The notes beneath the pieces are model-generated. The model was not told the origin of the DNA. It was given only the letters and a program-made list of their open reading frames with translations, and searched no databases. Below, one piece after another: positions 1 through 12,497 of a DNA stretch of 12,497 nt (positions are counted from its first letter, which is position 1; every line of letters begins with the position of its first letter). Source of the DNA: a virus (lineage: Duplodnaviria > Heunggongvirae > Uroviricota > Caudoviricetes). Position numbers and translations under genes: made by a program. The DNA is taken from IMG/VR virus record IMGVR_UViG_2859799533_000004; one strand, given 5' to 3'.

Positions 1-1230
1 ATGAGCAGAGCACTTAACAAACTGAGCGATACACAGCTGAGGAAAATCAACGGCACACCCGCCCAAAAAACAGCCTTTCTTAATGACGGTGGAAACCTGA
101 GCGTCAGGCATTCAACCAGCGGCCTTTTAACCTGGTATTTCACCTACAGGGCCGGAACGGGAAGGGGAGCACGACCGGAACGGATTAAGCTGGGAAATTA
201 TCCTGATCTGAGTCTGAAAGCTGCCAGGGAAAAAGCGGCACAGTGTCGCGCTTGGCTTGCTGAGGGGAAAAATCCACGTCATGAGATGAATTACACCGTA
301 CAGAAAGCGTTAAAGCCCGTAACGGTTGGCGATGCGCTTACCTACTGGCTTGAGTCTTACGTAAAGGAAAACCGCGTGGATTATGCCGCCCTGAAAAAGC
401 GCCTTAATAATCACGTAATACAGCACATTGGTGCTATGCCGCTGGATAAATGCGAGCTACGGCACTGGCTGGCCTGTTTTGACCAGGTGGCAAAGCGAAC
501 GCCTGTTACTGCCGGATTCTTGCTACAGACGTGCAAACAGGCGCTTAAGTTCTGCCGGAGGCGGCGCTATGCAATCAGCAACGTTCTTGATGATATGAGT
601 GTGGCGGACGTTGGGAAAAAACCGGATATAAGCGAGCGTGTCTTAAGCACCAAAGAACTTGGCGAATTATTGCAGGCACTGGACAAAAAAATATTTTCCC
701 CTTACTACGTCGCACTAATCCGCCTCCTGATTGTTTTCGGATGCCGGACGGTAGAACTGAGGTTATCGGAGATCAGCGAGTGGGATTTTACCGAAATGCT
801 CTGGACCGTGCCGAAAGAACACAGCAAAACGAAGGTGGCAATATTCCGGCCCATACCGGAAGCAATACTGCCGTTCGTCACGCAGCTGGTGGAGCAGAAC
901 AGGCACACGGGCTTATTGCTGGGGGAAGTGAAACAGGAAACAAGCGTGTCGCAGTACGGCAGATTAGCGCACAGGAGGCTAAAACACCCTCACTGGTCAC
1001 TGCATGACATCCGGCGCACCTTTACAACGATGCTGAACGATTTAGGCGTGGATCCTCACGTCGTGGAGCAGCTTACAGGTCATCAGATGCCAGGGATGCA
1101 ACGAGTCTATAACCATTCCCGTTATCTGGATGCGAAACGTGACGCGCTGGATATGTGGACGGAGCGGTTAGGGATACTGGCGGGAACACATGAAAACGTA
1201 ACCACATTGCCAATAGCCAGAGAAATATAA
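1..1230 (+). CDS. int: Tyrosine-type site-specific integrase, P4 family (N-terminal arm-binding domain plus C-terminal catalytic domain)
   Basis: Full 409-aa ORF. N-terminus has the P4-integrase arm-binding pattern (LNDGGNLSV...WYFTYR...IKLGNYPDLSLKAAREKA). C-terminus carries catalytic motifs HDIRRTF (HxxR), LTGH and VYNHSRY (nucleophile Tyr). Confidence 0.92.
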   Translation: MSRALNKLSDTQLRKINGTPAQKTAFLNDGGNLSVRHSTSGLLTWYFTYRAGTGRGARPERIKLGNYPDLSLKAAREKAAQCRAWLAEGKNPRHEMNYTVQKALKPVTVGDALTYWLESYVKENRVDYAALKKRLNNHVIQHIGAMPLDKCELRHWLACFDQVAKRTPVTAGFLLQTCKQALKFCRRRRYAISNVLDDMSVADVGKKPDISERVLSTKELGELLQALDKKIFSPYYVALIRLLIVFGCRTVELRLSEISEWDFTEMLWTVPKEHSKTKVAIFRPIPEAILPFVTQLVEQNRHTGLLLGEVKQETSVSQYGRLAHRRLKHPHWSLHDIRRTFTTMLNDLGVDPHVVEQLTGHQMPGMQRVYNHSRYLDAKRDALDMWTERLGILAGTHENVTTLPIAREI

Positions 1231-1264
1231 TTTTTTTTGCGATTTTTCAGGATGCGGACAACGT

Positions 1265-1312
1265 GAAACAACGAGACACAACGACGAACAACAAGGAACA
1301 AAATGGAACAAC
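1265..1312 (+). repeat. Five helically phased (~10 bp) direct repeats with ACAAC core; candidate AlpA/Xis-type or integrase arm-type binding array
   Basis: Read directly: GAAACAAC(1265) GACACAAC(1275) GAACAAC(1286) GAACAAA(1296) GAACAAC(1306), all same orientation at 10-11 bp spacing in the int-alpA intergenic region. Confidence 0.6.
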
Positions 1313-1355
1313 GGGTTAAAAATCAGCCATCGTAATAACCATTTGATTTTTATAG

Positions 1356-1376
1356 GTGTACTGTTTTTTTATACAC
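1356..1376. promoter_or_regulatory. Dyad GTGTA-CTGT-N8-ACAC in the AT-rich alpA upstream region; resembles a LexA box with one core mismatch (CAC instead of CAG)
   Basis: Sequence GTGTACTGTTTTTTTATACAC read directly; 5-bp inverted arms GTGTA/TACAC. Regulator identity is not established. Confidence 0.25.
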
Positions 1377-1511
1377 TGGCGAATCACTCTTAAAAATATG
1401 TAAAAAAGGCGTAAAAGTAAAATTTTATGCCTTTGCATCATAATGAATTAAAAGAGTTTTTATTCTCATTCCCCTGCTTCTGTAAAACGACCGCCGCCAG
1501 TGTTTGCCATT

Positions 1512-1545
1512 CCACAAACACCCTGACACAATCCGACACAACCCA
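1512..1545 (+). repeat. Second array of phased CACAA-type direct repeats just upstream of alpA
   Basis: CACAAACACC(1513), ACACAATCC(1526), ACACAACCC(1537) at about 11-bp spacing; same motif family as the 1265-1312 array. Confidence 0.45.
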
Positions 1546-1594
1546 ACCCAATAATCCACCCAATGACTCTTTAAGAAACAACAAAGGGGGAATT

Positions 1595-1783
1595 GTGTTA
1601 AGCACAGATCGCTTTATACGTGAAAAAGAATGTCAGCAACTTACAGGCCTGAGCCGCTCATGTCGGTACCGCCTGGAAAAAGCCGGACAATTCCCATCAC
1701 GGCGTAAGCTGGGCGGTCGTTCCGTTGGCTGGTCTTTATCCGAAGTTCTGGCATGGAAGGACAGCTGCGAGGCAGTTCACTAA
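1595..1783 (+). CDS. alpA: AlpA-family (P4 Vis-like) small DNA-binding regulator/excisionase
   Basis: C-terminal 62 aa of ORF 1427..1783 match the AlpA/Vis pattern (LSTDRFIREKECQQLTGLSRSCRYRLEKAGQFPSRRKLGGRSVGWSLSEVLAW). Start placed at in-frame GTG 1595 after AAAGGGGG; the ATG at 1427 would add an N-terminal extension across the repeat arrays. Confidence 0.8.
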   Translation: MLSTDRFIREKECQQLTGLSRSCRYRLEKAGQFPSRRKLGGRSVGWSLSEVLAWKDSCEAVH

Positions 1784-1835
1784 TCAGGCTGGCGGCACAC
1801 AGCCGCCACCCATCCACTAATACAGAGATCTAACC

Positions 1836-2210
1836 ATGAATACTGGATATTCTCCCGAACAAGGGCGGGGCTTCGTTCGTCCTGAAAAACAGAATCTGCA
1901 AAATTTTGCCGAAATTATTCCGGTTATTTCCGGCCTTACTGGCGGGAGTGAAACCAATATTGTTAACGCCAGAGCGTTGCAGATGTTTGATGATAAAAAG
2001 GGAGTAAATTTAACTTACACCCCTGACGGCAATCAGAATATGAGCATTATCTCTGAGTCAGGTTTCTACAAACTAATAAAAACAAAAAGCGCCCCGTTGC
2101 CGGAGCGCCTTTGTGAACAATTAACCTACTGCGCAAAAAATGAATCTGAGCAGTGGGATTATATCAACCATGTGGAGAAGCGCCACAATTGCCGAATAAC
2201 GGGCAAAACA
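1836..2210 (+). CDS. Possible Bro-N-like (antirepressor-type) protein fragment; 3' end undefined because the frame stays open to 3260
   Basis: N-terminal ~125 aa are protein-like and contain a Bro-N-like motif (DDKKGVNLTYTPDGNQNMSIISESGFYKLIKTKS). The remainder of the 474-aa ORF is Cys/Ser/Arg-rich and antisense to better-supported minus-strand genes. End coordinate is nominal. Confidence 0.3.
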
Positions 2211-2311
2211 AAGGCCACCCGCTACGGTGGCCCCTCGACACAAGCTACACGTTATCCCCAACGCATGAGCATTGCCAACAATGCCACATTTGCGGCTGGT
2301 GGGCAATGCAA

Positions 2312-2500
2312 TCAGTCTGGTTCAGTTCGTTGCCATACCTGCAATGAGCGCTTTTCCCTGTACTCTTTAAGGAATTGCTCAAGGGCAAAAGCACATGGCG
2401 CGAATCTTTCTGATTCATGCTCTATCTTTCTGCGCCGTCTTTTCCGTGCCGGTGATAATGTTTTGGTCAATTCTTTATCGGTCATTGTGTTGTCCTGCAT
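2312..2500 (-). CDS. Small basic protein (57-62 aa), second gene of the leftward pair; function unknown
   Basis: ORF with an RRRRK basic patch. An internal ATG at 2485 has a better SD (AGGA, 7-nt spacer) than the ATG at 2500. Lies 42 bp downstream of the RHH-like gene. Confidence 0.45.
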   Translation of the reverse strand: MQDNTMTDKELTKTLSPARKRRRRKIEHESERFAPCAFALEQFLKEYREKRSLQVWQRTEPD

Positions 2501-2542
2501 AGCAATGCGCCGTAATACCTTACACCACGGCGCTGATGGTGA

Positions 2543-2848
2543 TTACTCTGGTTCTTTGGTCTTGCGGCGCTGGAGTTCTTCACGTGCGACAGTGACGAGC
2601 TGCCCGATCTCCTCGGCGGCTTTGATTCCGAGTTTTTCCACCTGCGCCAGTGCATCGAGCGAAGAAACCAGGGGATTTTCTCCACTTCCTTCTGCCTGGC
2701 GCCGGGCGATCTCACCGCGTACAGCCGTAACTATAAAATTCGCTTTAGTTTCCCCTGGCTGTAGGGATGCCTCAATGCCACTCACTACTTCATGTGGAAA
2801 TCTGGCATTCAGTTGCTGTGACTTATTGTTAACAGAACTCCTGGACAT
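2543..2848 (-). CDS. Putative transcriptional regulator, possibly ribbon-helix-helix type; candidate island repressor (or antitoxin)
   Basis: 101-aa protein from ATG at 2848 with strong SD (GGAGGTG, 5-nt spacer). N-terminal pattern NARFPHEVVSGIEASL...TKANFIVTAVRGEIARRQ fits a beta-strand plus two helices. It is transcribed divergently from the main operon across the operator palindromes. Confidence 0.55.
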   Translation of the reverse strand: MSRSSVNNKSQQLNARFPHEVVSGIEASLQPGETKANFIVTAVRGEIARRQAEGSGENPLVSSLDALAQVEKLGIKAAEEIGQLVTVAREELQRRKTKEPE

Positions 2849-2891
2849 GTTTGCACCTCCCATTAATAACGGGATGCAGTGTAATACAAAA

Positions 2892-2946
2892 GTGAATACC
2901 AAAAAAGACTTGAAATGGTATTCACCTAAATGTAATGTGAATACCA
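2892..2946. promoter_or_regulatory. Operator region: three copies of GTGAATACCA forming two overlapping perfect 10-bp-arm palindromes between the divergent genes
   Basis: GTGAATACCA at 2892-2901, TGGTATTCAC at 2916-2925 (inverted), GTGAATACCA at 2937-2946; read directly. Confidence 0.6.
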
Positions 2947-2984
2947 CAAGTGCTGATACATGCAATTCAGCAATTGAAACGACG

Positions 2985-3017
2985 AAGCCCCGCACTGTTG
3001 GAGCAGTAACGGGGCTT
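2985..3017 (+). promoter_or_regulatory. Imperfect long hairpin in the leader of the rightward operon
   Basis: AAGCCCCG(2985-2992) pairs with CGGGGCTT(3010-3017), extended by CACTG/CAGT. No following T-run, so it is not a classic terminator. Confidence 0.3.
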
Positions 3018-3053
3018 CTAACCACCAACGATAACGAGAGTATCGAGGTAGCT

Positions 3054-3260
3054 ATGAGAAATCATACCACACACCCGCAAGGGCGGGACTCGCACAACCT
3101 GAATAAATACATCTGGCGTTTTATCGCCCTGAGCACTGCACAACCGCGCGTGATTACCATTGAGGCCACCAGCGAACAGGAAGCACGCCAGCAATCCCCG
3201 GCTGGCTGCGTGATGGTATTCGCTGCCCGTATTCGTCAGGAGGTGTGCCATGTGCAATAA
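3054..3260 (+). CDS. Small protein (68 aa), first gene of the rightward operon; tentatively Icd-like (P4 cell-division-inhibitor family)
   Basis: ATG 3054 with SD GAGGT (4-nt spacer). Protein-like sequence YIWRFIALSTAQPRVITIEATSEQEARQQ...VMVFAARIR. The family assignment is from memory and unverified. Its stop overlaps the next start. Confidence 0.5.
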   Translation: MRNHTTHPQGRDSHNLNKYIWRFIALSTAQPRVITIEATSEQEARQQSPAGCVMVFAARIRQEVCHVQ

Positions 3261-3474
3261 CACCCGTCCGGACGCAGCCGCCGAAGCCATCATAACGCTA
3301 ATGCATGCGCTGATTGATATTTCTGTTATTGCTGACAGGGCGCATAAACACGCAGCCAGAGAATCAGAATGCATCTTCCATTATTTAGCATTTGTGCAGC
3401 TAAAAGCCGATCAGGCACTGGATAAGGCCGGAAAAATTATCATGGCTGATGTGCAGGAGGTGCACCATGCATAA
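3250..3474 (+). CDS. Hypothetical protein (74 aa)
   Basis: ATG 3250 preceded by AGGAGG (6-nt spacer); overlaps the upstream stop by 11 nt and the downstream start by 8 nt. Confidence 0.6.
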   Translation: MCNNTRPDAAAEAIITLMHALIDISVIADRAHKHAARESECIFHYLAFVQLKADQALDKAGKIIMADVQEVHHA

Positions 3475-3832
3475 CCTGTCAATTTCTGACCTTAACAGCA
3501 TTCAGTTTGACGAGAAATTTACCGGGCAGTTGCTGGTCAATGTGGAGAACGGGCGCATAGTGCGTAATTATCACCTGCCGGATGGTGCAATTGCCGGAAG
3601 CGTTGAAGCATTGCTGGAACTGGCGGAACGTGCGCGACTGATTAAGCCGTCAACGAGCCATCACGATGATGATCTGCATTTTACCGGATGTATGGTGAGT
3701 CACTACGAAAACGGCGTCGAGGTATCCTGCGAACGGCTGCGTGATGATTGCTGTTTCGGCACACTGCCGGAATTTATCGAGTTGCTGACCAGTTGCGGTT
3801 ATCAGGTCATTCAGGGGGGTAAACATGCGTGA
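3467..3832 (+). CDS. Hypothetical protein (121 aa)
   Basis: Start placed at ATG 3467 (MHNLSISD...) because AGGAGG sits 7 nt upstream; the ORF-track start at 3449 lacks an SD. Coupled to its neighbours by ATGCATAA and CATGCGTGA overlaps. Confidence 0.6.
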   Translation: MHNLSISDLNSIQFDEKFTGQLLVNVENGRIVRNYHLPDGAIAGSVEALLELAERARLIKPSTSHHDDDLHFTGCMVSHYENGVEVSCERLRDDCCFGTLPEFIELLTSCGYQVIQGGKHA

Positions 3833-4058
3833 TGATCGTTTTAATTCCCTGAAACAGGAATTTTCCGGCGTTCCTGATGATGCGGCTGATGCGCTTTCGT
3901 CAATGCCAGAACTTATTAGAGCGGCTTTTTTCTTACTTTCCACGAGAGAATATAAATCAACGGGGCTTGATGTACTGAATATCGCCGCCGATTATGCGGA
4001 ATATGTGGCAGAGGCGCGTTACAGAAGAAAATTTCCTGAGGATGTAAGCCATGCGTGA
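3825..4058 (+). CDS. Hypothetical protein (77 aa)
   Basis: ATG overlaps the upstream stop (ATGCGTGA); begins MRD. Confidence 0.6.
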   Translation: MRDDRFNSLKQEFSGVPDDAADALSSMPELIRAAFFLLSTREYKSTGLDVLNIAADYAEYVAEARYRRKFPEDVSHA

Positions 4059-4284
4059 TATTTACCACGAAACAATAGACCGCGCATTTCTTGCACTTTC
4101 TCACAGTGAAAACATGCTGGAAATATTGCGCATATGGCTTGAAACACTTGGCGACAATGAACGCGACAAACAAAAATCAAGAATTGCCACGGCATTAATA
4201 ACGCTTCTTGAGCCTGTAATAATGGAACTGCAAGAAATAGATCTATTGCACGACAGATATAAAGAACAGCACACCGGAGAATAA
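4051..4284 (+). CDS. Hypothetical protein (77 aa)
   Basis: Same ATGCGTGA overlap junction as the preceding gene; also begins MRD and has the same length, suggesting a diverged tandem paralog. Confidence 0.6.
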   Translation: MRDIYHETIDRAFLALSHSENMLEILRIWLETLGDNERDKQKSRIATALITLLEPVIMELQEIDLLHDRYKEQHTGE

Positions 4285-4289
4285 AAATA

Positions 4290-4589
4290 ATGAAACTTAA
4301 ATATTCTGGCTTAACTGCCAGTGGCAACACTCACCCTAAATTTACGCGCGGTGATATTTACCGCGACCAGTACGGCGGCACGGTAATGATTAAGGGCGTG
4401 GAAGAACGGCGTGTAACCTACCGCCGTGAAGGTTACGAATATGATTGCGTGATGCCTGTTTATCAGTTCCGGCGTGATTTTTCTCTGGTACAGACCGCGC
4501 CGCATAACGTGCCCACCAGCAACGCCAGGGCACGGGCAAACATCCAGAAGCTGAAAACCATGGTTAACGGATTCAGGGGCAAGAAATGA
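4290..4589 (+). CDS. Hypothetical protein (99 aa) immediately upstream of, and coupled to, the replicase gene
   Basis: ATG 4290 with GGAGA upstream; its stop overlaps the rep start (ATGA). Confidence 0.65.
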   Translation: MKLKYSGLTASGNTHPKFTRGDIYRDQYGGTVMIKGVEERRVTYRREGYEYDCVMPVYQFRRDFSLVQTAPHNVPTSNARARANIQKLKTMVNGFRGKK

Positions 4590-5884
4590 AAAGCGCACCG
4601 AACTTAAAAAAACAGCCTTACGACAAGATGACCGAAGTCATTATTTTTGCGGGTAGTGATGCCTGGGCACATGCGAAACAGTGGCAGGAACAGGACGGGC
4701 GACTGGCTGGCGATAATGTGCCTCCCGTTGTGCTGGCTGATGATCAACTGGATGAACTGGCAGACCTGAGAATCATCGACGAGGGGCGCTATTGTGTCCG
4801 GCTGTACAAGGCAGGCCACATCAGGCCATCAAATATTAATGCCATTGCGCACAAGCTGGCGGCGGCGGGTGTAACTGATGCGAATTATTACCCCGAAGGG
4901 ATGCACAGCCATATGCGGGAGAACTGGCGCGAATACCTGGAACGGGTGCGCGGGAAAGAGCCGGCGGAAGAAAAAAACCACCAGCGAAAAACCACGCTAC
5001 CGATGAGCGTTGGATCTACCGGATACGACACGCAACTGGATTACGTGGTTAAGGGGATTATTCCGGCGGTATCGCTATGCAGCATATACGGAGCTAGCGG
5101 GTCCTATAAATCATTCCTTGCCGGATCGTGGGCGTGCCATGTTGCCACTGGTCGCCAGTGGGGAGGCCGCAGGGTTGCACATGGTGCGGTTCTCTATGTG
5201 GTTGGTGAAGGCGGTATAGGTGTTCCGCGTCGTGTAAAAGCCTGGGAGGTTGTGCACGATGAGCAGGTGAAAAATCTGTATCTGGTAAACCGCCCCATCT
5301 TTCCGGCTGCCCCGCTTGATGTTGATGAAATGGTTATCGCTGCCCGTCAGGTGGAGCGGGAAACGGGTAAACCTGTACGCATGATTATTCTGGATACGCT
5401 GGCGCGTTGCTTTGGTGGGAATGATGAAAATGATTCCCGTGATATGGGGGCGTTTATCCGTGGTTGTGACGAACTGAAACGACGCACAGGGGCCACGGTG
5501 CTGGTGGTTCACCATTCCGGCAAGGATGAGACGAAAGGCGCGCGCGGTTCCAGTGCATTTCGTGCTTCGCTGGATGCTGAATACCGGATACGCAGGGAGG
5601 ACGCAGGAAGCGAAGCGCTGGTTATCTCATGCACCAAAATGAAGGACGCGGAGGAACTCAAAGAAGCCGCATATGACTTACGCGTGGTGGAGCTTTTTAC
5701 CGACGCTGACGGTGAATTAATCACGTCGCTGGTGGTGGTGGATGATCCGCGCCCTCCTGTTGAACTGGAGCGCATCGAGGAGGCAGGGAACAAGACGGAA
5801 AACCATACCGCGCTATGGGGTGCATCCGTTCACGCACACAGAACGGCGACAAGTGCACGATCCCGCTGTTACGTGATGACATGA
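4586..5884 (+). CDS. Replication protein: RepA/DnaB-like RecA-fold P-loop ATPase (AAA_25-type helicase core) with ~150-aa N-terminal extension
   Basis: P-loop region IYGASGSYKSFLAGSWACHVATG (5090-5113), Walker B VRMIILDTLARCF, and the family-typical VLVVHHSGKDETKGARGSSA motif. The Walker A is non-canonical (Tyr where the Gly before Lys is expected). Confidence 0.82.
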   Translation: MKSAPNLKKQPYDKMTEVIIFAGSDAWAHAKQWQEQDGRLAGDNVPPVVLADDQLDELADLRIIDEGRYCVRLYKAGHIRPSNINAIAHKLAAAGVTDANYYPEGMHSHMRENWREYLERVRGKEPAEEKNHQRKTTLPMSVGSTGYDTQLDYVVKGIIPAVSLCSIYGASGSYKSFLAGSWACHVATGRQWGGRRVAHGAVLYVVGEGGIGVPRRVKAWEVVHDEQVKNLYLVNRPIFPAAPLDVDEMVIAARQVERETGKPVRMIILDTLARCFGGNDENDSRDMGAFIRGCDELKRRTGATVLVVHHSGKDETKGARGSSAFRASLDAEYRIRREDAGSEALVISCTKMKDAEELKEAAYDLRVVELFTDADGELITSLVVVDDPRPPVELERIEEAGNKTENHTALWGASVHAHRTATSARSRCYVMT

Positions 5885-5985
5885 AAAAGCTGGGGTATGA
5901 AATGAAAAACTTCCGGCGCTGGCTGTACAAGCTGGAAAAAGATGGGGTTATTCGTATCGATGGGGATGATGTAGCGCCGCTATAA
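5881..5985 (+). CDS. Small ORF (34 aa) overlapping the rep stop (ATGA); may be a frame-shifted C-terminal part of the replicase rather than a separate gene
   Basis: The +1 frame from 5764 reads as protein-like sequence (..GDKCTIPLLRDDMKKLGYEMKNFRRWLYKLEKDGVIRIDGDDVAPL) whereas the annotated rep tail (HTALWGASVHAHRTATSARSRCYVMT) does not. Confidence 0.3.
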   Translation: MKKLGYEMKNFRRWLYKLEKDGVIRIDGDDVAPL

Positions 5986-6177
5986 AAGTGAGGAGCAAAA
6001 GCGAGGGGGATAGAAAGAGGGCCAAAATTAGCCCGCTCTCCCTCACTTTTCGACCTGTATACATCCTCAAAAGTGAGGGGTAAAAAAATACTTATGAAAC
6101 ACACACATAGAAAAACCGAAAATCCCAACTGCGACGAAGTGAGACGCTTGAAAAAGTGAGGCGAAAAAGTGAGAGGT
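5984..6177 (+). repeat. Iteron cluster, probable replication origin, with central AT-rich unwinding segment
   Basis: AAAAGTGAGG at 5984, 6069 and 6152; AAAAGTGAGA at 6166; variants AAAAGCGAGG (5997) and GAAGTGAGA (6135); an inverted copy CCTCACTTTT (6041-6050); AT-rich stretch 6080-6130. Directly downstream of rep. Confidence 0.7.
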
Positions 6178-6185
6178 TGCGAGAA

Positions 6186-6437
6186 ATGACCCAAAAACGC
6201 AGAGACAGAACAGAGCCAAAATATAAAGCGTTAGACATGACTGAGCACACCTTAAAGGTGGCAATCAGAACGATAGACCGCCACACGCGGGAAGGATACG
6301 CGAAGGAACATCCCGACCTGATAAGCGCATTCATGACCACGGCGGCGGCAAACTTTGCCACGCTGACAGAACGGGAGATTGCCGAAGCGGAACAGGTAAC
6401 AACCATCAACGTTAAAACCGGAGAGGTGGAATCATGA
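6186..6437 (+). CDS. Hypothetical protein (83 aa) overlapping the origin and coupled to ssb
   Basis: Start at ATG 6186 within ORF 6156..6437; stop overlaps the ssb start (ATGA). Confidence 0.5.
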   Translation: MTQKRRDRTEPKYKALDMTEHTLKVAIRTIDRHTREGYAKEHPDLISAFMTTAAANFATLTEREIAEAEQVTTINVKTGEVES

Positions 6438-6856
6438 CAGCACAGATAGCAGCTTACGGGCGGCTGGTGGACGACCCGCAGGTAAAACAGACCAGCAAGG
6501 GCACACCAATGACGCTGGCACGTATGGCGGTCCCCCTTCCGTGCAGCCAGGCAGATGACGGAACGGCGACGATGTGGTTATCCGTCCTGGCATTTGGCAG
6601 ACAGGCCGAAGCACTGGAAAGGCACCGCAAGGGTGAACTCCTGAGCGTGGCGGGTAACATGCAGATCAGCCAGTGGACTGGGCAGAACGGAGAAACGCGG
6701 CAGGGCTGGCAGGTTATCGCAGACAGTGTAATCAGTGCGCGAACGGCGCGACTGGGCGGCAAAAAAGGTCAACAGGGCCAGGCTACTGACGCGCTGAACA
6801 GGGCAAAACAACAGGCGGGGAATGATGATCCGTACGGGGATAACATACCGTTTTAA
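6434..6856 (+). CDS. ssb: Single-stranded DNA-binding protein (SSB, OB fold with acidic C-terminal tail)
   Basis: N-terminal pattern MTAQIAAYGRLVDDPQVKQTSKGTPMTLARMAV and C-terminal ...DDPYGDNIPF, which parallels the E. coli SSB tail DDDIPF. Confidence 0.85.
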   Translation: MTAQIAAYGRLVDDPQVKQTSKGTPMTLARMAVPLPCSQADDGTATMWLSVLAFGRQAEALERHRKGELLSVAGNMQISQWTGQNGETRQGWQVIADSVISARTARLGGKKGQQGQATDALNRAKQQAGNDDPYGDNIPF

Positions 6857-6872
6857 GCGACGAGTGACAGAA

Positions 6873-6894
6873 GCCGGAGCAATCCGGCTTTTTT
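6873..6894 (+). terminator. Rho-independent terminator after ssb
   Basis: GCCGGA-gcaa-TCCGGC hairpin followed by TTTTTT. Confidence 0.7.
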
Positions 6895-6990
6895 ACGGGG
6901 CCTCCTGGCGGGGTGGGCCTGAACACGGGGCGGGAGGCGCGGAAAAAAGCGCATTTTTGTGATTTTATCGTCATCATCATCATGAGCGTA
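6895..6990 (+). other. Degenerate cos-like element (S1), a diverged paralog of the cos region at 9335-9420
   Basis: ACGGGGCC..TGG...ACGGGGCGGGAGGCGCGG aligns with cosQ/cosN of S2, but the cosN core is altered and 2 nt shorter; CATCATCATCAT parallels CACCACCACCAC downstream of S2. Confidence 0.45.
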
Positions 6991-7075
6991 ATTTATTGTT
7001 TTTAATTGTTTTGATGCAAAAAAGATGATGGTTATGGTTAATTTTTGTTCGACATCTTTGCAGGCAGATAAAAAA

Positions 7076-9939: not shown

Positions 9940-10090
9940 CAATACAACAACCACGTATTTTTTTAAAACTATTTGATTCAATTAGCATTTTTTTATTTTT
10001 AGCATCAAAAAAACACTATCAGGTTGTTGTATTGCTCTTTATTTTTACTTAGTTATCAAATGGATATGACAAACAATTAAACAACAACCT
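9940..10090. promoter_or_regulatory. cosB-like region for the inverted cos: three ACAACAACC sites in alternating orientation with an intervening partial IHF motif
   Basis: GCAATACAACAACC (9940-9953, +), GGTTGTTGTATTGC (10022-10035, inverted, perfect 14-bp IR), ACAACAACCT (10081-10090, +); TATCAAatggATA at 10054-10066 matches WATCAA of the IHF consensus but not its TTR end. Confidence 0.4.
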
Positions 10091-10103: not shown

Positions 10104-10169
10104 CTCATAAATAGCGAAAAACCGCGAGGTCGCCGCCCCGTAACGGGCCATAATTCCAGGAAGGACCCG
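10104..10169 (-). other. Second lambda-type cos site (S3) in inverted orientation
   Basis: Reverse complement reads CGGGTCCTTCCTGG..GGCCCGTTACGGGGCGGCGACCTCGCGGTTTTTCGCTATTTATGA; the cosN 12-mer is identical to S2 (complement at 10127-10138), and the flanks are about 85-90 percent identical to S2. Confidence 0.8.
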
Positions 10170-10484: not shown

Positions 10485-10652
10485 CTGGTTGATATTTTCG
10501 AAATTCGCCAGCGGCGAACATCGGGGAAACCAGCCTAACCCGTTGATATTTTCGGGAACCTCAAATTGAAGAGGTCGGAAACATAACCCGTCATATTCTG
10601 GATGCTGATAATTACCACGCAGCCCATTAAGGCCTAACCCGTTGATTCTTCC
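10482..10652 (+). repeat. Four degenerate direct repeats of about 19 bp (TAACCCGTTGATATTTTCG) at 48-54 bp period
   Basis: Copies at 10482-10500, 10536-10554, 10584-10600 and 10635-10652, starting at the stop codon of the preceding ORF. Confidence 0.6.
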
Positions 10653-10931
10653 ACAATCCCCCATTGGGGAGGCTGGGCGGCCTGCTGTGGGCTTTTCCAC
10701 CATTGGTGGAAAGGCGCACATCTGGATCATCATTACGGTGATCAAGGGTATGTAAAACCCACCAGCCTGATTGACATTTAACCGGAAAAAAGCCAGGTAG
10801 CCCCGTTATGGGGATCCCCATATCGACATTAACGCCCCTCATGAATTGGCGCGCTTCCCCCTGGAAAGATGACCCGCCTGTATATTTCTTGTGTCTATTT
10901 GTTCCACGTTGTTTCATACAGTGCAACGATC

Positions 10932-10955
10932 GGTGTAGTTAATGGTGTAGTCAAT
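10932..10955 (+). repeat. Tandem 12-bp direct repeat GGTGTAGT(T/C)AAT
   Basis: Two adjacent copies, 11 of 12 identical, followed by a GCACT-N5-AGTGC dyad, in the region downstream of phoQ. Confidence 0.45.
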
Positions 10956-11036
10956 TTGCGATTTTTAGCACTTTTGCAGTGCAAATCATTTAATTAAATC
11001 AATGGCTTGCCTTGATGTAGTGATAAAAGGACATAT

Positions 11037-12497
11037 TTATTCATCTTTCGGCGCAGAATGCTGGCGACCAAAAATCACCTCCATCCGCGCACCGCCCAGC
11101 ATGCTCTCTCCGGCGACGATTTTACCCTCATATTGCTCGGTGATTTCGCGGGCTACCGCCAGCCCTACACCTTGCCCAGGGCGTAAAGTATCAACCCGTT
11201 GACCACGGTCGAAAATGACCTCTCGCTTGCTTAATGGAATACCGGGGCCATCATCCTCGACCACAATATAGAGATGCTCGTCGGTTTGCCTTGCAGAAAT
11301 TTCGACAAACTCGAGGCAATATTTACAGGCATTATCCAGCACGTTGCCCATCACCTCGACAAAATCGTTCTGCTCACCGACAAAGCTGATCTCTGGCGAA
11401 ATATCGAGAGAGATATTGACCCCTTTGCGTTGATACACTTTGTTCAGCGCTGAGGTGAGATTGTCCAGCAGTGGGGCGACCGGATGCAGCTCGCGGCTGA
11501 GCAATGTCCCGCCGCGCATACTGGCACGATGCAGGTAGTAGCCAATTTGCTGTGAAATGCGGCTGATTTGCTCCAGCATTACCGGCTCAGCATCACTGAC
11601 GCTCATCTTTTCACTACGCAGAGAACGCAGCGTACTTTGCAGCACCGCCAGTGGCGTTTTCAGACTATGGGTCAGGTCGGTGAGCGTCGTACGGTATTTG
11701 TCGTAACGTTCGCGTTCACTTTTTAACAATCGGTTCAGGTTTCGTACCAGACTGGTCAGTTCTCGCGTTGTGGCTGGATTGAGCAATTCGCGGTTATGTT
11801 CTTCCAGTTCGCGGACTTCTTTTGCCAGGGCTTCGATGGGGCGTAAACTCCACCAGGCGGCGACCCACAGCAGCGGGATCACTAACAGCAGATTGGCTGA
11901 GAGCACATAGATAAACCAGCTCCAGACCATATAGGAACTTTTTAGCTCCACCGGAATGGTATCCACCACCACAATGGTTAATTTTGGCATCCGCGATGTT
12001 GCCGGGTAGACGTTTACTGCCACCGAGTGGGTCATCTCCGCGTCGTCATCATCTTCCCGCACTTCCTGCAACTGTTGCTGTATCGAATGATCTCCACTCA
12101 GCAAGAGGCTGGTATCGTTAACATCCGCTTCAATTTCATGAAAACCATTCGATTTCAGCCAGTCAGGCTGGATCATCTTCATCAGCCAGGGCACGTCACG
12201 TTGCGCCCATAAAAGCTGCCCGTTCTCATCATAAATTAGCGTCATGGTGGGGCTTTGCTTGTCGATATTTTCGGGTAACTCGACATGCAACTTATTGTTT
12301 TCCCACTTCGCAAGGGTATAGAACAGATTGCTCTCGCCACGTAACAGCCGAAACGTAGTTTTATCGAAACTGACGCTATAACCGATCAGCGCGACCATTC
12401 CGTAGGCAAGCGAAAGCACCAGTACTACCGCAGCCGTTGCCAACAGAAAACGTACCCGCAGCGAGAGCGGGAAAAAAAGACGCAGTAATTTTTTCAT
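11037..12497 (-). CDS. phoQ: Sensor histidine kinase PhoQ of the PhoP/PhoQ two-component system (chromosomal flank)
   Basis: Complete 486-aa ORF recognised as PhoQ: N-terminus [41 protein letters not shown], periplasmic acidic patch [13 protein letters not shown], phosphoacceptor [11 protein letters not shown], and kinase G-boxes DDGPGIP and GQGVGLAVA. Confidence 0.97.

Follow-up and report, generated by a model that had tools for sequence, protein, structure and literature searches.

A stretch of viral DNA of 12,497 nucleotides (Caudoviricetes; IMG/VR record IMGVR_UViG_2859799533_000004), referred to in its full length as the window, represents a chromosomal island inducible by phages (phage-inducible chromosomal island, PICI) sited between roxA and phoQ, and DNA of 99.9% identity is found at this locus in an Escherichia coli chromosome. 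Two genes at its left end are encoded on the + strand: int (1–1230), whose product is a tyrosine integrase that carries an arm-DNA-binding domain at its N terminus (Pfam Arm-DNA-bind_3, 9.5e-19; Phage_integrase, 5.4e-17), and alpA (1595–1783), which starts with GTG and encodes a protein of 62 residues (Pfam Phage_AlpA, 3e-18). We have analyzed the intergenic region between both genes, for which an initial annotation of positions 1265–1545 had described phased repeats and a dyad resembling a LexA box. Window 1–2573, including the int-alpA module, shares 99.5% identity with EcCICFT073, which serves as model of Gram-negative PICIs, with zero mismatches over 1–1470, and the two proteins are identical to their EcCICFT073 counterparts (integrase WP_000085269.1 and AlpA WP_000953274.1). 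The experiments published for EcCICFT073 therefore apply directly to the window.

The intergenic region harbors two arrays of 10-bp repeats on the + strand. Array 1 (1253–1312) consists of six units, with ACAAC at 1258 (the first unit, which starts 7 bp to the left of 1265), 1268, 1278, 1288 and 1308 and ACAAA at 1298; it is detected with a period of 10 by Tandem Repeats Finder (TRF) and recovered as family D1 of a repeat search with spacings of 10, 10, 10 and 10. Array 2 (1525–1554; TRF period 10 over 1525–1552) is composed of the three units GACACAATCC, GACACAACCC and AACCCAATAA, whose cores are ACAAT at 1528, ACAAC at 1538 and CCAAT at 1548, and its first unit contains the predicted –10 hexamer of the alpA promoter. 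The two helically phased clusters of the same orientation that had initially been annotated are thus found, at an exact spacing of 10 bp, whereas the accompanying count of at least eight ACAAC repeats is true of the relaxed core ACAA only (nine copies between 1258 and 1542, eight inside 1265–1545, all on the + strand), since the exact ACAAC occurs just five times in the latter span. Across the window, ACAAC is not enriched in number (26 observed versus 26.7 expected), but its phasing is far beyond chance: the 7-mer G[AG][AC]ACAA, derived from array 1, matches at 19 places and forms six same-strand pairs at exactly +10, compared to a mean of 0.0045 and never more than one such pair in 2000 dinucleotide shuffles. 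Beyond the int-alpA spacer, phased matches of this pattern are confined to the two arms of the attachment site attP, and the repeat search independently pairs array 1 with the array of the P' arm. An ACAAC near the ribosome-binding site (1578) was considered as an additional member and dropped, as it is not conserved, and the arrays also differ from replication-origin iterons, which are about 17–22 bp long and located beside a rep gene or origin, while the units described here measure 10 bp and reside between int and alpA.

The organization of attP was defined by placing the crossover core GGACATATTT with the help of the empty site of E. coli K-12 and attL of strain CFT073. The attL core is located 172–181 bp upstream of the ATG of int and the attR core (11029–11038) overlaps with the phoQ stop codon. 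Inside the island, both arms contain the same module, which comprises three to four TTGTT units at 10-bp phasing (TTGTT being the reverse complement of AACAA), the sequence GCAACGATC and a doubled 12-mer GGTGTAGTTAAT. The P arm carries an array of three units on the – strand (10886–10915), reading GACACAA, GGAACAA and GAAACAA on that strand, with TTGT at 10889, 10899 and 10909, which is also found in the island of strain 042; it is accompanied by the doubled 12-mer GGTGTAGTTAAT GGTGTAGTCAAT (10932–10955, + strand), the presumed integrase arm-type sites of this arm. In the P' arm, which lies outside the window, phased units extend from –89 to –56 and the 12-mers from –45 to –22 upstream of int (7884–7907 of L010, the CFT073 island). 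Both doubled 12-mers have the same orientation and are centered around –90 and +142 relative to the attP core, and in either arm the array stops 14–23 bp short of them. Arrays as they are typical for recombination directionality factors (RDFs), with at least three head-to-tail repeats about one helical turn apart, are therefore found in four places (six units in array 1, three in array 2, three in the P arm and at least four in the P' arm), although only the arm copies are placed beside an integrase arm site. Arrays 1 and 2 are separated from the attL core by about 1.4–1.7 kb that include the int gene and are thus not within the approximately 150–200 bp of the crossover core expected for arm sites. 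As judged from this layout, the arrays that could serve excision are the arm copies (10889–10912 and –89 to –56 upstream of int) and not those between int and alpA.

The evolutionary behavior of the arrays was investigated in related islands, which were collected from E. coli genomes with insertions at four other chromosomal sites and from IMG/VR contigs and include a close set of 50 unique intergenic regions that are 68–100% identical. In this set, the cores of array 1 are conserved at about 0.9 and its spacers at 0.5–0.6, and the number of units varies by exact 10-bp indels in both arrays. Array 2 contains three to four units in relatives, and the distance from the –10 element to the start codon shifts by exactly 10 bp. 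The combination of conserved cores, free spacers and indels of whole units points to selection, and the exact length of the indels excludes a coding role, since they disrupt every reading frame of the small open reading frames (ORFs) over the arrays that had been considered as candidates. Phased arrays are kept in 54 of 55 distinct intergenic regions of islands with the AlpA allele termed v1, and AACAA ranks at the top of an unbiased search for 5-mers that recur at +10.

The identity of the protein that reads each element is suggested by covariation. The island of strain 042 encodes the same AlpA (v1) as the O157 island and an integrase that differs at residues 5–58, and it contains altered 12-mers (P' arm, GGTGTAGTCACT; P arm, GTCACT/GTCATT) together with unaltered TTGTT units. 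More generally, the doubled 12-mer varies with residues 29–43 of the integrase, in its arm-binding strand, and contains either GTTAAT, GTCACT or GGTCAGT. A second allele, AlpA v2, is 60% identical to v1 and differs in the recognition region (VCRTTRYE versus LSRSCRYR). In elements with this allele, the phased unit in the P' arm and upstream of alpA is CGAAC, which is found in 36 of 38 v2 regions, while phased [AC]ACAA is found in 0 of 38. Two recombinant elements (L105 and L012) combine AlpA v2 and CGAAC units with the 12-mer of the window type and the corresponding integrase strand (residues 27–55 identical). The 12-mer thus follows the integrase strand and the phased unit the AlpA allele, and the reading with the fewest assumptions would assign the 12-mers to the integrase as arm-type sites and the phased units to AlpA. 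As expected for the site of an RDF, the units covary with the recognition region of a small cognate protein encoded beside int, for which a winged-helix fold is expected from its family. The initial proposal of an AlpA-type protein acting on phased repeats gains support from this pattern, while binding of integrase arm domains to the same units, which had been proposed along with it, appears unlikely, as the doubled 12-mer and not the phased unit changes with the arm-binding strand. In v2 intergenic regions, we also find a second phased array, AATATC in three copies at 10–11 bp, located just after int (e.g. L012 2617–2645). This motif is absent from the att arms, and a second binding protein is therefore possible in v2 elements.

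The predicted alpA promoter is the sole sigma-70-like match in 1100–1900 and consists of a –35 element TTGCCA (1504–1509), a 17-bp spacer and a –10 element CACAAT (1527–1532) on the + strand. Each of the 50 relatives retains TTGCCA, the length of the spacer and [CA]ACAAT, whereas the spacer sequence exists in three unrelated versions, and the preservation of the elements despite unrelated spacers is good, if indirect, evidence that the promoter is real. Array 2 starts within the –10 element and extends about 30 bp downstream, and array 1 is located 190–250 bp upstream of the promoter. The region in between contains a match to the consensus of integration host factor (IHF), AATCAAATGGTTA (WATCARNNNNTTR; 1336–1348, – strand), which is kept in 49 of 50 unique relatives with variable N4 positions, the dyad block described below, and a hairpin with a conserved 12-bp stem (1405–1434), preceded by an A-run and followed by a T-run. 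The hairpin has a predicted dG of –16.6 kcal/mol on the + strand (z = –5.5) and of –10.1 kcal/mol on the – strand, where a U6 run follows the stem, and it resembles a bidirectional terminator that probably insulates alpA from int transcription.

Primers listed in the supplement of the published work map the lacZ reporter fragment of the alpA promoter to window 1198–1652 and an alpA-ORF3 reporter to 1198–2269, both of which span 1265–1545. In EcCICFT073, AlpA provided in trans activates the alpA-promoter fragment, a reporter of the int promoter is unaffected by AlpA, and overexpression of AlpA alone causes int-dependent excision and replication. The primers of the int-promoter reporter have no match in the DNA compared, and this reporter may or may not include the P' arm arrays. 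The 1198–2269 reporter does not respond to mitomycin C in non-lysogens and is induced in lysogens of lambda or phi80, and EcCIMP1 behaves alike. The repeats between int and alpA had initially been annotated as sites of excision and alpA control. Latter function is supported by the activation of the 1198–1652 reporter by AlpA, but the former is at odds with their distance from the attL core.

Together, these observations suggest, with a probability that we estimate at about 0.6, that the arrays serve as operators for the AlpA encoded by the island itself, with the arm copies serving excision and the copies between int and alpA serving autoregulation. We infer that AlpA binds the units, and likewise how such binding would activate transcription. 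In the proposed mechanism, AlpA, as a winged-helix protein of the excisionase or RDF type, would assemble head-to-tail with one protomer per helical turn on G(G/A)(A/C)ACAA(C/T) repeated every 10 bp. On the arm arrays, beside the arm-type 12-mers of the integrase, it would act as excision factor, and on the arrays between int and alpA, it would confer positive autoregulation of alpA, which could be mediated by either of the two. As preferred mechanism of activation, we envisage an AlpA filament that remodels promoter DNA, as it would be the case for bifunctional proteins of the Cox, Apl, RdfS or BldC type, and the weaker array 2 might cap expression at high levels of AlpA.

Several points weigh against this assignment. 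Array 2 covers the region from –10 to about +30, which is the position of a repressor, whereas AlpA activates, and array 1 is far upstream, with the IHF-like site not midway to the promoter, which itself is a prediction. The literature searched contains no electrophoretic mobility shift assay, footprint or chromatin immunoprecipitation for these sites and no paper that maps AlpA sites. The covariation reflects two AlpA clades, equivalent to one or two evolutionary switches, and its counts are thus not independent. Residues 3–26 of the integrase also differ in v2 elements, so that a contribution of this protein is conceivable, although strain 042 shares several of these changes and yet keeps v1 units. 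Finally, alpA of CP4-57 in K-12 shows no comparable phased arrays and has a different layout, and the arrays are therefore not a general rule of the AlpA family.

A different candidate for the control of alpA is found at 1356–1378. The dyad described for this region in the initial annotation is present, with arms GTGTA (1356–1360) and TACAC (1372–1376) and the sequence CTGT-N8-ACAC (1361–1376) inside. Its left arm is poorly conserved (0.5–0.8), and the conserved part, CTG[GT]TTTTTT[AG]TACA[CT]T[AG]G[CT]GAAT, is asymmetric. The block is a separate conserved element and not a LexA operator, and a role in the sensing of helper phage is possible. We tentatively consider, as a minority view, that the asymmetric block (CTGG-T6-ATACAYTRGYGAAT), together with a boxA-like sequence and the hairpin, forms the cis target of a helper inducer or a host factor that would act independently of the AlpA arrays. 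The block is conserved at about 0.9, above its flanks, across the close set, it is contained in the helper-responsive reporter fragment, and no paper in the literature searched names the helper-phage inducer of alpA. In addition, CACTCTTAAAAAT at 1385–1397 is identical in 12 of 13 positions to boxA plus spacer of lambda nutL (CGCTCTTAAAAAT) and is followed, 7 nt on, by the strong hairpin. The block, however, fits no known binding consensus, the intergenic region displays no meaningful similarity to any of 50,697 phage records, and a search of the whole window at the gathering thresholds of Rfam returned no RNA family. Moreover, one subgroup of relatives has lost the boxA-like part, the hairpin is unlike lambda boxB, and the fact that lambda and phi80 induce alike argues against a route specific for N and boxB.

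The proposed operator function of the arrays for AlpA has also to be weighed against the assumption that the AACAA units are arm-type sites of the N-terminal domain of the integrase, with arrays 1 and 2 as extra sites, for example for autoregulation. We regard this as improbable. As in P'1–P'3 of lambda, sites of the arm type can adjoin each other as direct repeats with a spacing of about one helical turn, and the assumption is favored by the Arm-DNA-bind_3 domain of the integrase, the presence of the units in both attP arms and the differences in integrase residues 3–26 between v1 and v2 elements. It is contradicted by strain 042 in comparison to O157, where the 12-mer changes with the integrase strand in both arms and the AACAA units stay constant, by the two recombinants, in which the integrase strand and 12-mer of the window type coexist with CGAAC units, by the distance of arrays 1 and 2 from the core and by the response to AlpA of the fragment that bears them.

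Slightly more doubtful is the possibility that AlpA acts as Q-like processive antiterminator, as described for the protein from Pseudomonas aeruginosa, in which case array 2 would be a loading or sigma-dependent pause site and activation would reflect read-through. According to published work, P. aeruginosa AlpA binds an element inside its target promoters and bypasses terminators. The units of array 2 are themselves –10-like (CACAAT, CACAAC and CCCAAT), and some v2 elements, in which int and alpA are separated by an extra ORF, contain two phased GTTCG units in a terminator-like hairpin with a T-run directly before the start of alpA (L013 2871–2900 and L084 2542–2570). Conversely, P. aeruginosa AlpA binds one lone element, placed between –35 and –10 and with a terminator downstream, and not an array, whereas in the window the corresponding spacer is unconserved, the strong hairpin is placed upstream of the conserved promoter, and AlpA activates the fragment 1198–1652, in which no terminator follows the promoter. 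A sequence search of the PDB with AlpA returned a single match, 8c3t, which is a protein of the AlpA family, and no chain annotated as P. aeruginosa AlpA; it provides no support for an antiterminator and thus does not discriminate a protein of the RDF type from one of the antiterminator type. With a similarly small chance, both ideas could be combined, in that a helper would act via the block, the boxA-like sequence and the hairpin (1356–1434) on alpA and AlpA would then load onto RNA polymerase at array 2 as Q-like processive antiterminator for the whole unidirectional island. If true, the induction of Gram-negative PICIs would be an antitermination cascade and not classical activation.

That the dyad is a LexA operator and links alpA to the SOS response, as it had initially been suggested beside a coupling to a helper signal, is very unlikely. 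The 20-mer TACTGTTTTTTTATACACTG (1359–1378) resembles a LexA box, and in particular that of uvrB (AACTGTTTTTTTATCCAGTA), in its TACTG, T-rich spacer and ATACA at the right spacing and departs from it mainly at the G of CAG. Its left half TACTG is conserved, and its heterology index of 6.4, a crude measure that we built from E. coli LexA boxes, is the best among all 20-mers of the window and falls into the range of the sites used for training. In LexA boxes (CTGT-N8-ACAG), however, CTG and CAG are near-invariant, whereas CAG is CAC in the window and CAC or CAT in all 50 unique relatives, in which the palindromic left arm is not conserved either. LexA boxes also overlap or abut the promoter that they repress, while the dyad is about 130 bp upstream of the conserved –35 element, and inspection of both strands by eye together with a promoter scan revealed nothing convincing at 1356–1378. 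Finally, the 1198–2269 reporter, whose dyad DNA is identical, is induced only in presence of lambda or phi80 and not by mitomycin C in non-lysogens. The absence of CAG, the unconserved arm, the lack of promoter overlap and the insufficiency of SOS alone lead us to reject a LexA operator; strictly, the reporter excludes that SOS is sufficient and leaves room for a minor contribution of LexA.

A canonical CTG-N10-CAG box, TACTGGATATGCGAACAGAT, is found at a different place in 35 of the 50 unique relatives (e.g. L002 around 2100–2120, of the O157 type, equivalent to window positions of about 1253–1275). It is located about 20 bp past the int stop codon, with conserved flanks and a variable spacer, and the lineage of the window has two extra ACAAC units there. 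This box could be a real LexA site in islands of the O157 type.

That the arrays are read by no protein and represent DNA with an intrinsic curvature or the decaying remnant of an attP arm duplication is hardly credible, as, despite the bending of DNA by AA dinucleotides at 10-bp phasing, the resemblance of array 1 to an inverted copy of the P' arm array (families I1 and I2 of the repeat search, the best inverted repeats flanking int) and of the DNA after the int stop codon to that after the att core (D3), the conserved cores, free spacers and whole-unit indels point to selection and v2 elements retain the phasing with CGAAC, which is not an A-tract.

Other genes of the island, identified from ORFs and Pfam matches, encode a RepA-type helicase (4586–5884), a single-stranded DNA-binding protein (SSB) and a capsid protein of the lambda E type, and phoQ is on the minus strand. 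In comparison to the CFT073 island, the replication module is exchanged over window 2574–7070, with a RepA-family helicase here and a DNA primase in CFT073. Since the int-alpA module is 99.5% identical and the replication module is swapped, this indicates mosaic exchange between islands at the same site. A lambda-type cosN, AGGTCGCCGCCC, corresponding to the reverse complement of the lambda cohesive end, is found at 10127–10138. The recurrence of the repeat core in cosB-like sites, as initially annotated, is confirmed by the 8-mer ACAACAAC, which is present near cosN at 9944 (+), 10023 (–) and 10081 (+) in an arrangement that resembles the R sites of lambda cosB. These copies are not phased at 10 bp and therefore probably have no relation to the AlpA arrays. 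The stretch from the last ORF to the P arm contains two pairs of direct repeats, GTTGATATTTTCG (10488–10500 and 10542–10554) and GCCTAACCCGTTGAT (10533–10547 and 10632–10646), and the equivalent place in the island of strain 042 contains GTGAC four times at 10-bp spacing (L094 6930–6990, reverse complement).

AlpA is the master switch of Gram-negative PICIs, and the assignment of the arrays to this protein would explain how a single protein of 62 residues drives excision and boosts its own synthesis in EcCICFT073. It offers a testable operator code, with G(G/A)(A/C)ACAA at 10-bp phasing for one and CGAAC for the second AlpA allele, and it tells apart the sites of two proteins, the phased units of AlpA and the doubled 12-mer of the integrase. 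The region targeted by the helper signal is at the same time narrowed and the SOS explanation removed. These features would be useful for the engineering of PICI-based delivery vehicles and reporters, and their interest, which is moderate, is mainly for specialists in phage satellites.

The described layout can be compared to several known systems. P2 Cox, 186 Apl and P4 Vis are small proteins that bind runs of direct repeats spaced by about one helical turn, both at attP, where they act in excision, and at promoters, which they regulate. The island would share with them the use of one small regulator and of helically phased direct repeats at both places, and Vis has been named as a distant AlpA homologue by the authors of the EcCICFT073 study. 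Cox and Apl, however, mainly repress switch promoters, whereas AlpA activates its own, and the unit G(G/A)(A/C)ACAA, repeated every 10 bp exactly, bears no relation to cox boxes, with the arrays of the island being located in each of the attP arms and at two places between int and alpA. The lambda Xis sites X1-X1.5-X2 are similar in that winged-helix protomers assemble head-to-tail about 10 bp apart beside an arm-type site of the integrase and bend the arm for excision, but these are three sites in a single arm, and there is no array at an autoregulatory promoter. P. aeruginosa AlpA has in common the family name at the Pfam level, a site within the regulated promoter and positive control, and differs by its single GGGACG-N5-GGTA between –35 and –10, the downstream terminator and an antitermination mechanism that involves neither arrays nor att sites.

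With respect to the 12-mers, the closest parallel is found in helper-embedded PICIs, which contain a doubled 11–12-mer (tgTGTATTGCa x2) in two places, co-oriented at about –81 and +132 from the center of attP. The authors of that study did not find this motif in other PICIs and left open which protein binds it. The tandem doubled layout is the same as that of GGTGTAGTTAAT x2 at about –90 and +142 in the island, although the sequence is different, the 12-mer covaries with the integrase strand and phased units of the AlpA type precede each copy. Head-to-tail filaments with one protomer per turn of DNA are known for Xis, Cox and BldC, and for RdfS of ICEMlSymR7A, a winged-helix RDF, which binds 40 bp of attP directly upstream of an integrase arm site and in addition its own promoter. 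The island resembles latter system in that four 10-bp units, 40 bp in total, are placed directly upstream of the doubled 12-mer and further arrays are located at the alpA promoter. It differs in that RdfS recognizes no clear consensus motif, whereas the island has a clear unit, that RdfS carries an extra N-terminal helix and that an element of the integrative and conjugative type (ICE) is compared to a phage satellite. Relative to the literature searched, the repeat unit, the layout in four places and the separation from the integrase 12-mers are newly described, and the arrays would constitute a well-defined new example of the known operator arrays of excisionase-type regulators, which is unsurprising in principle.

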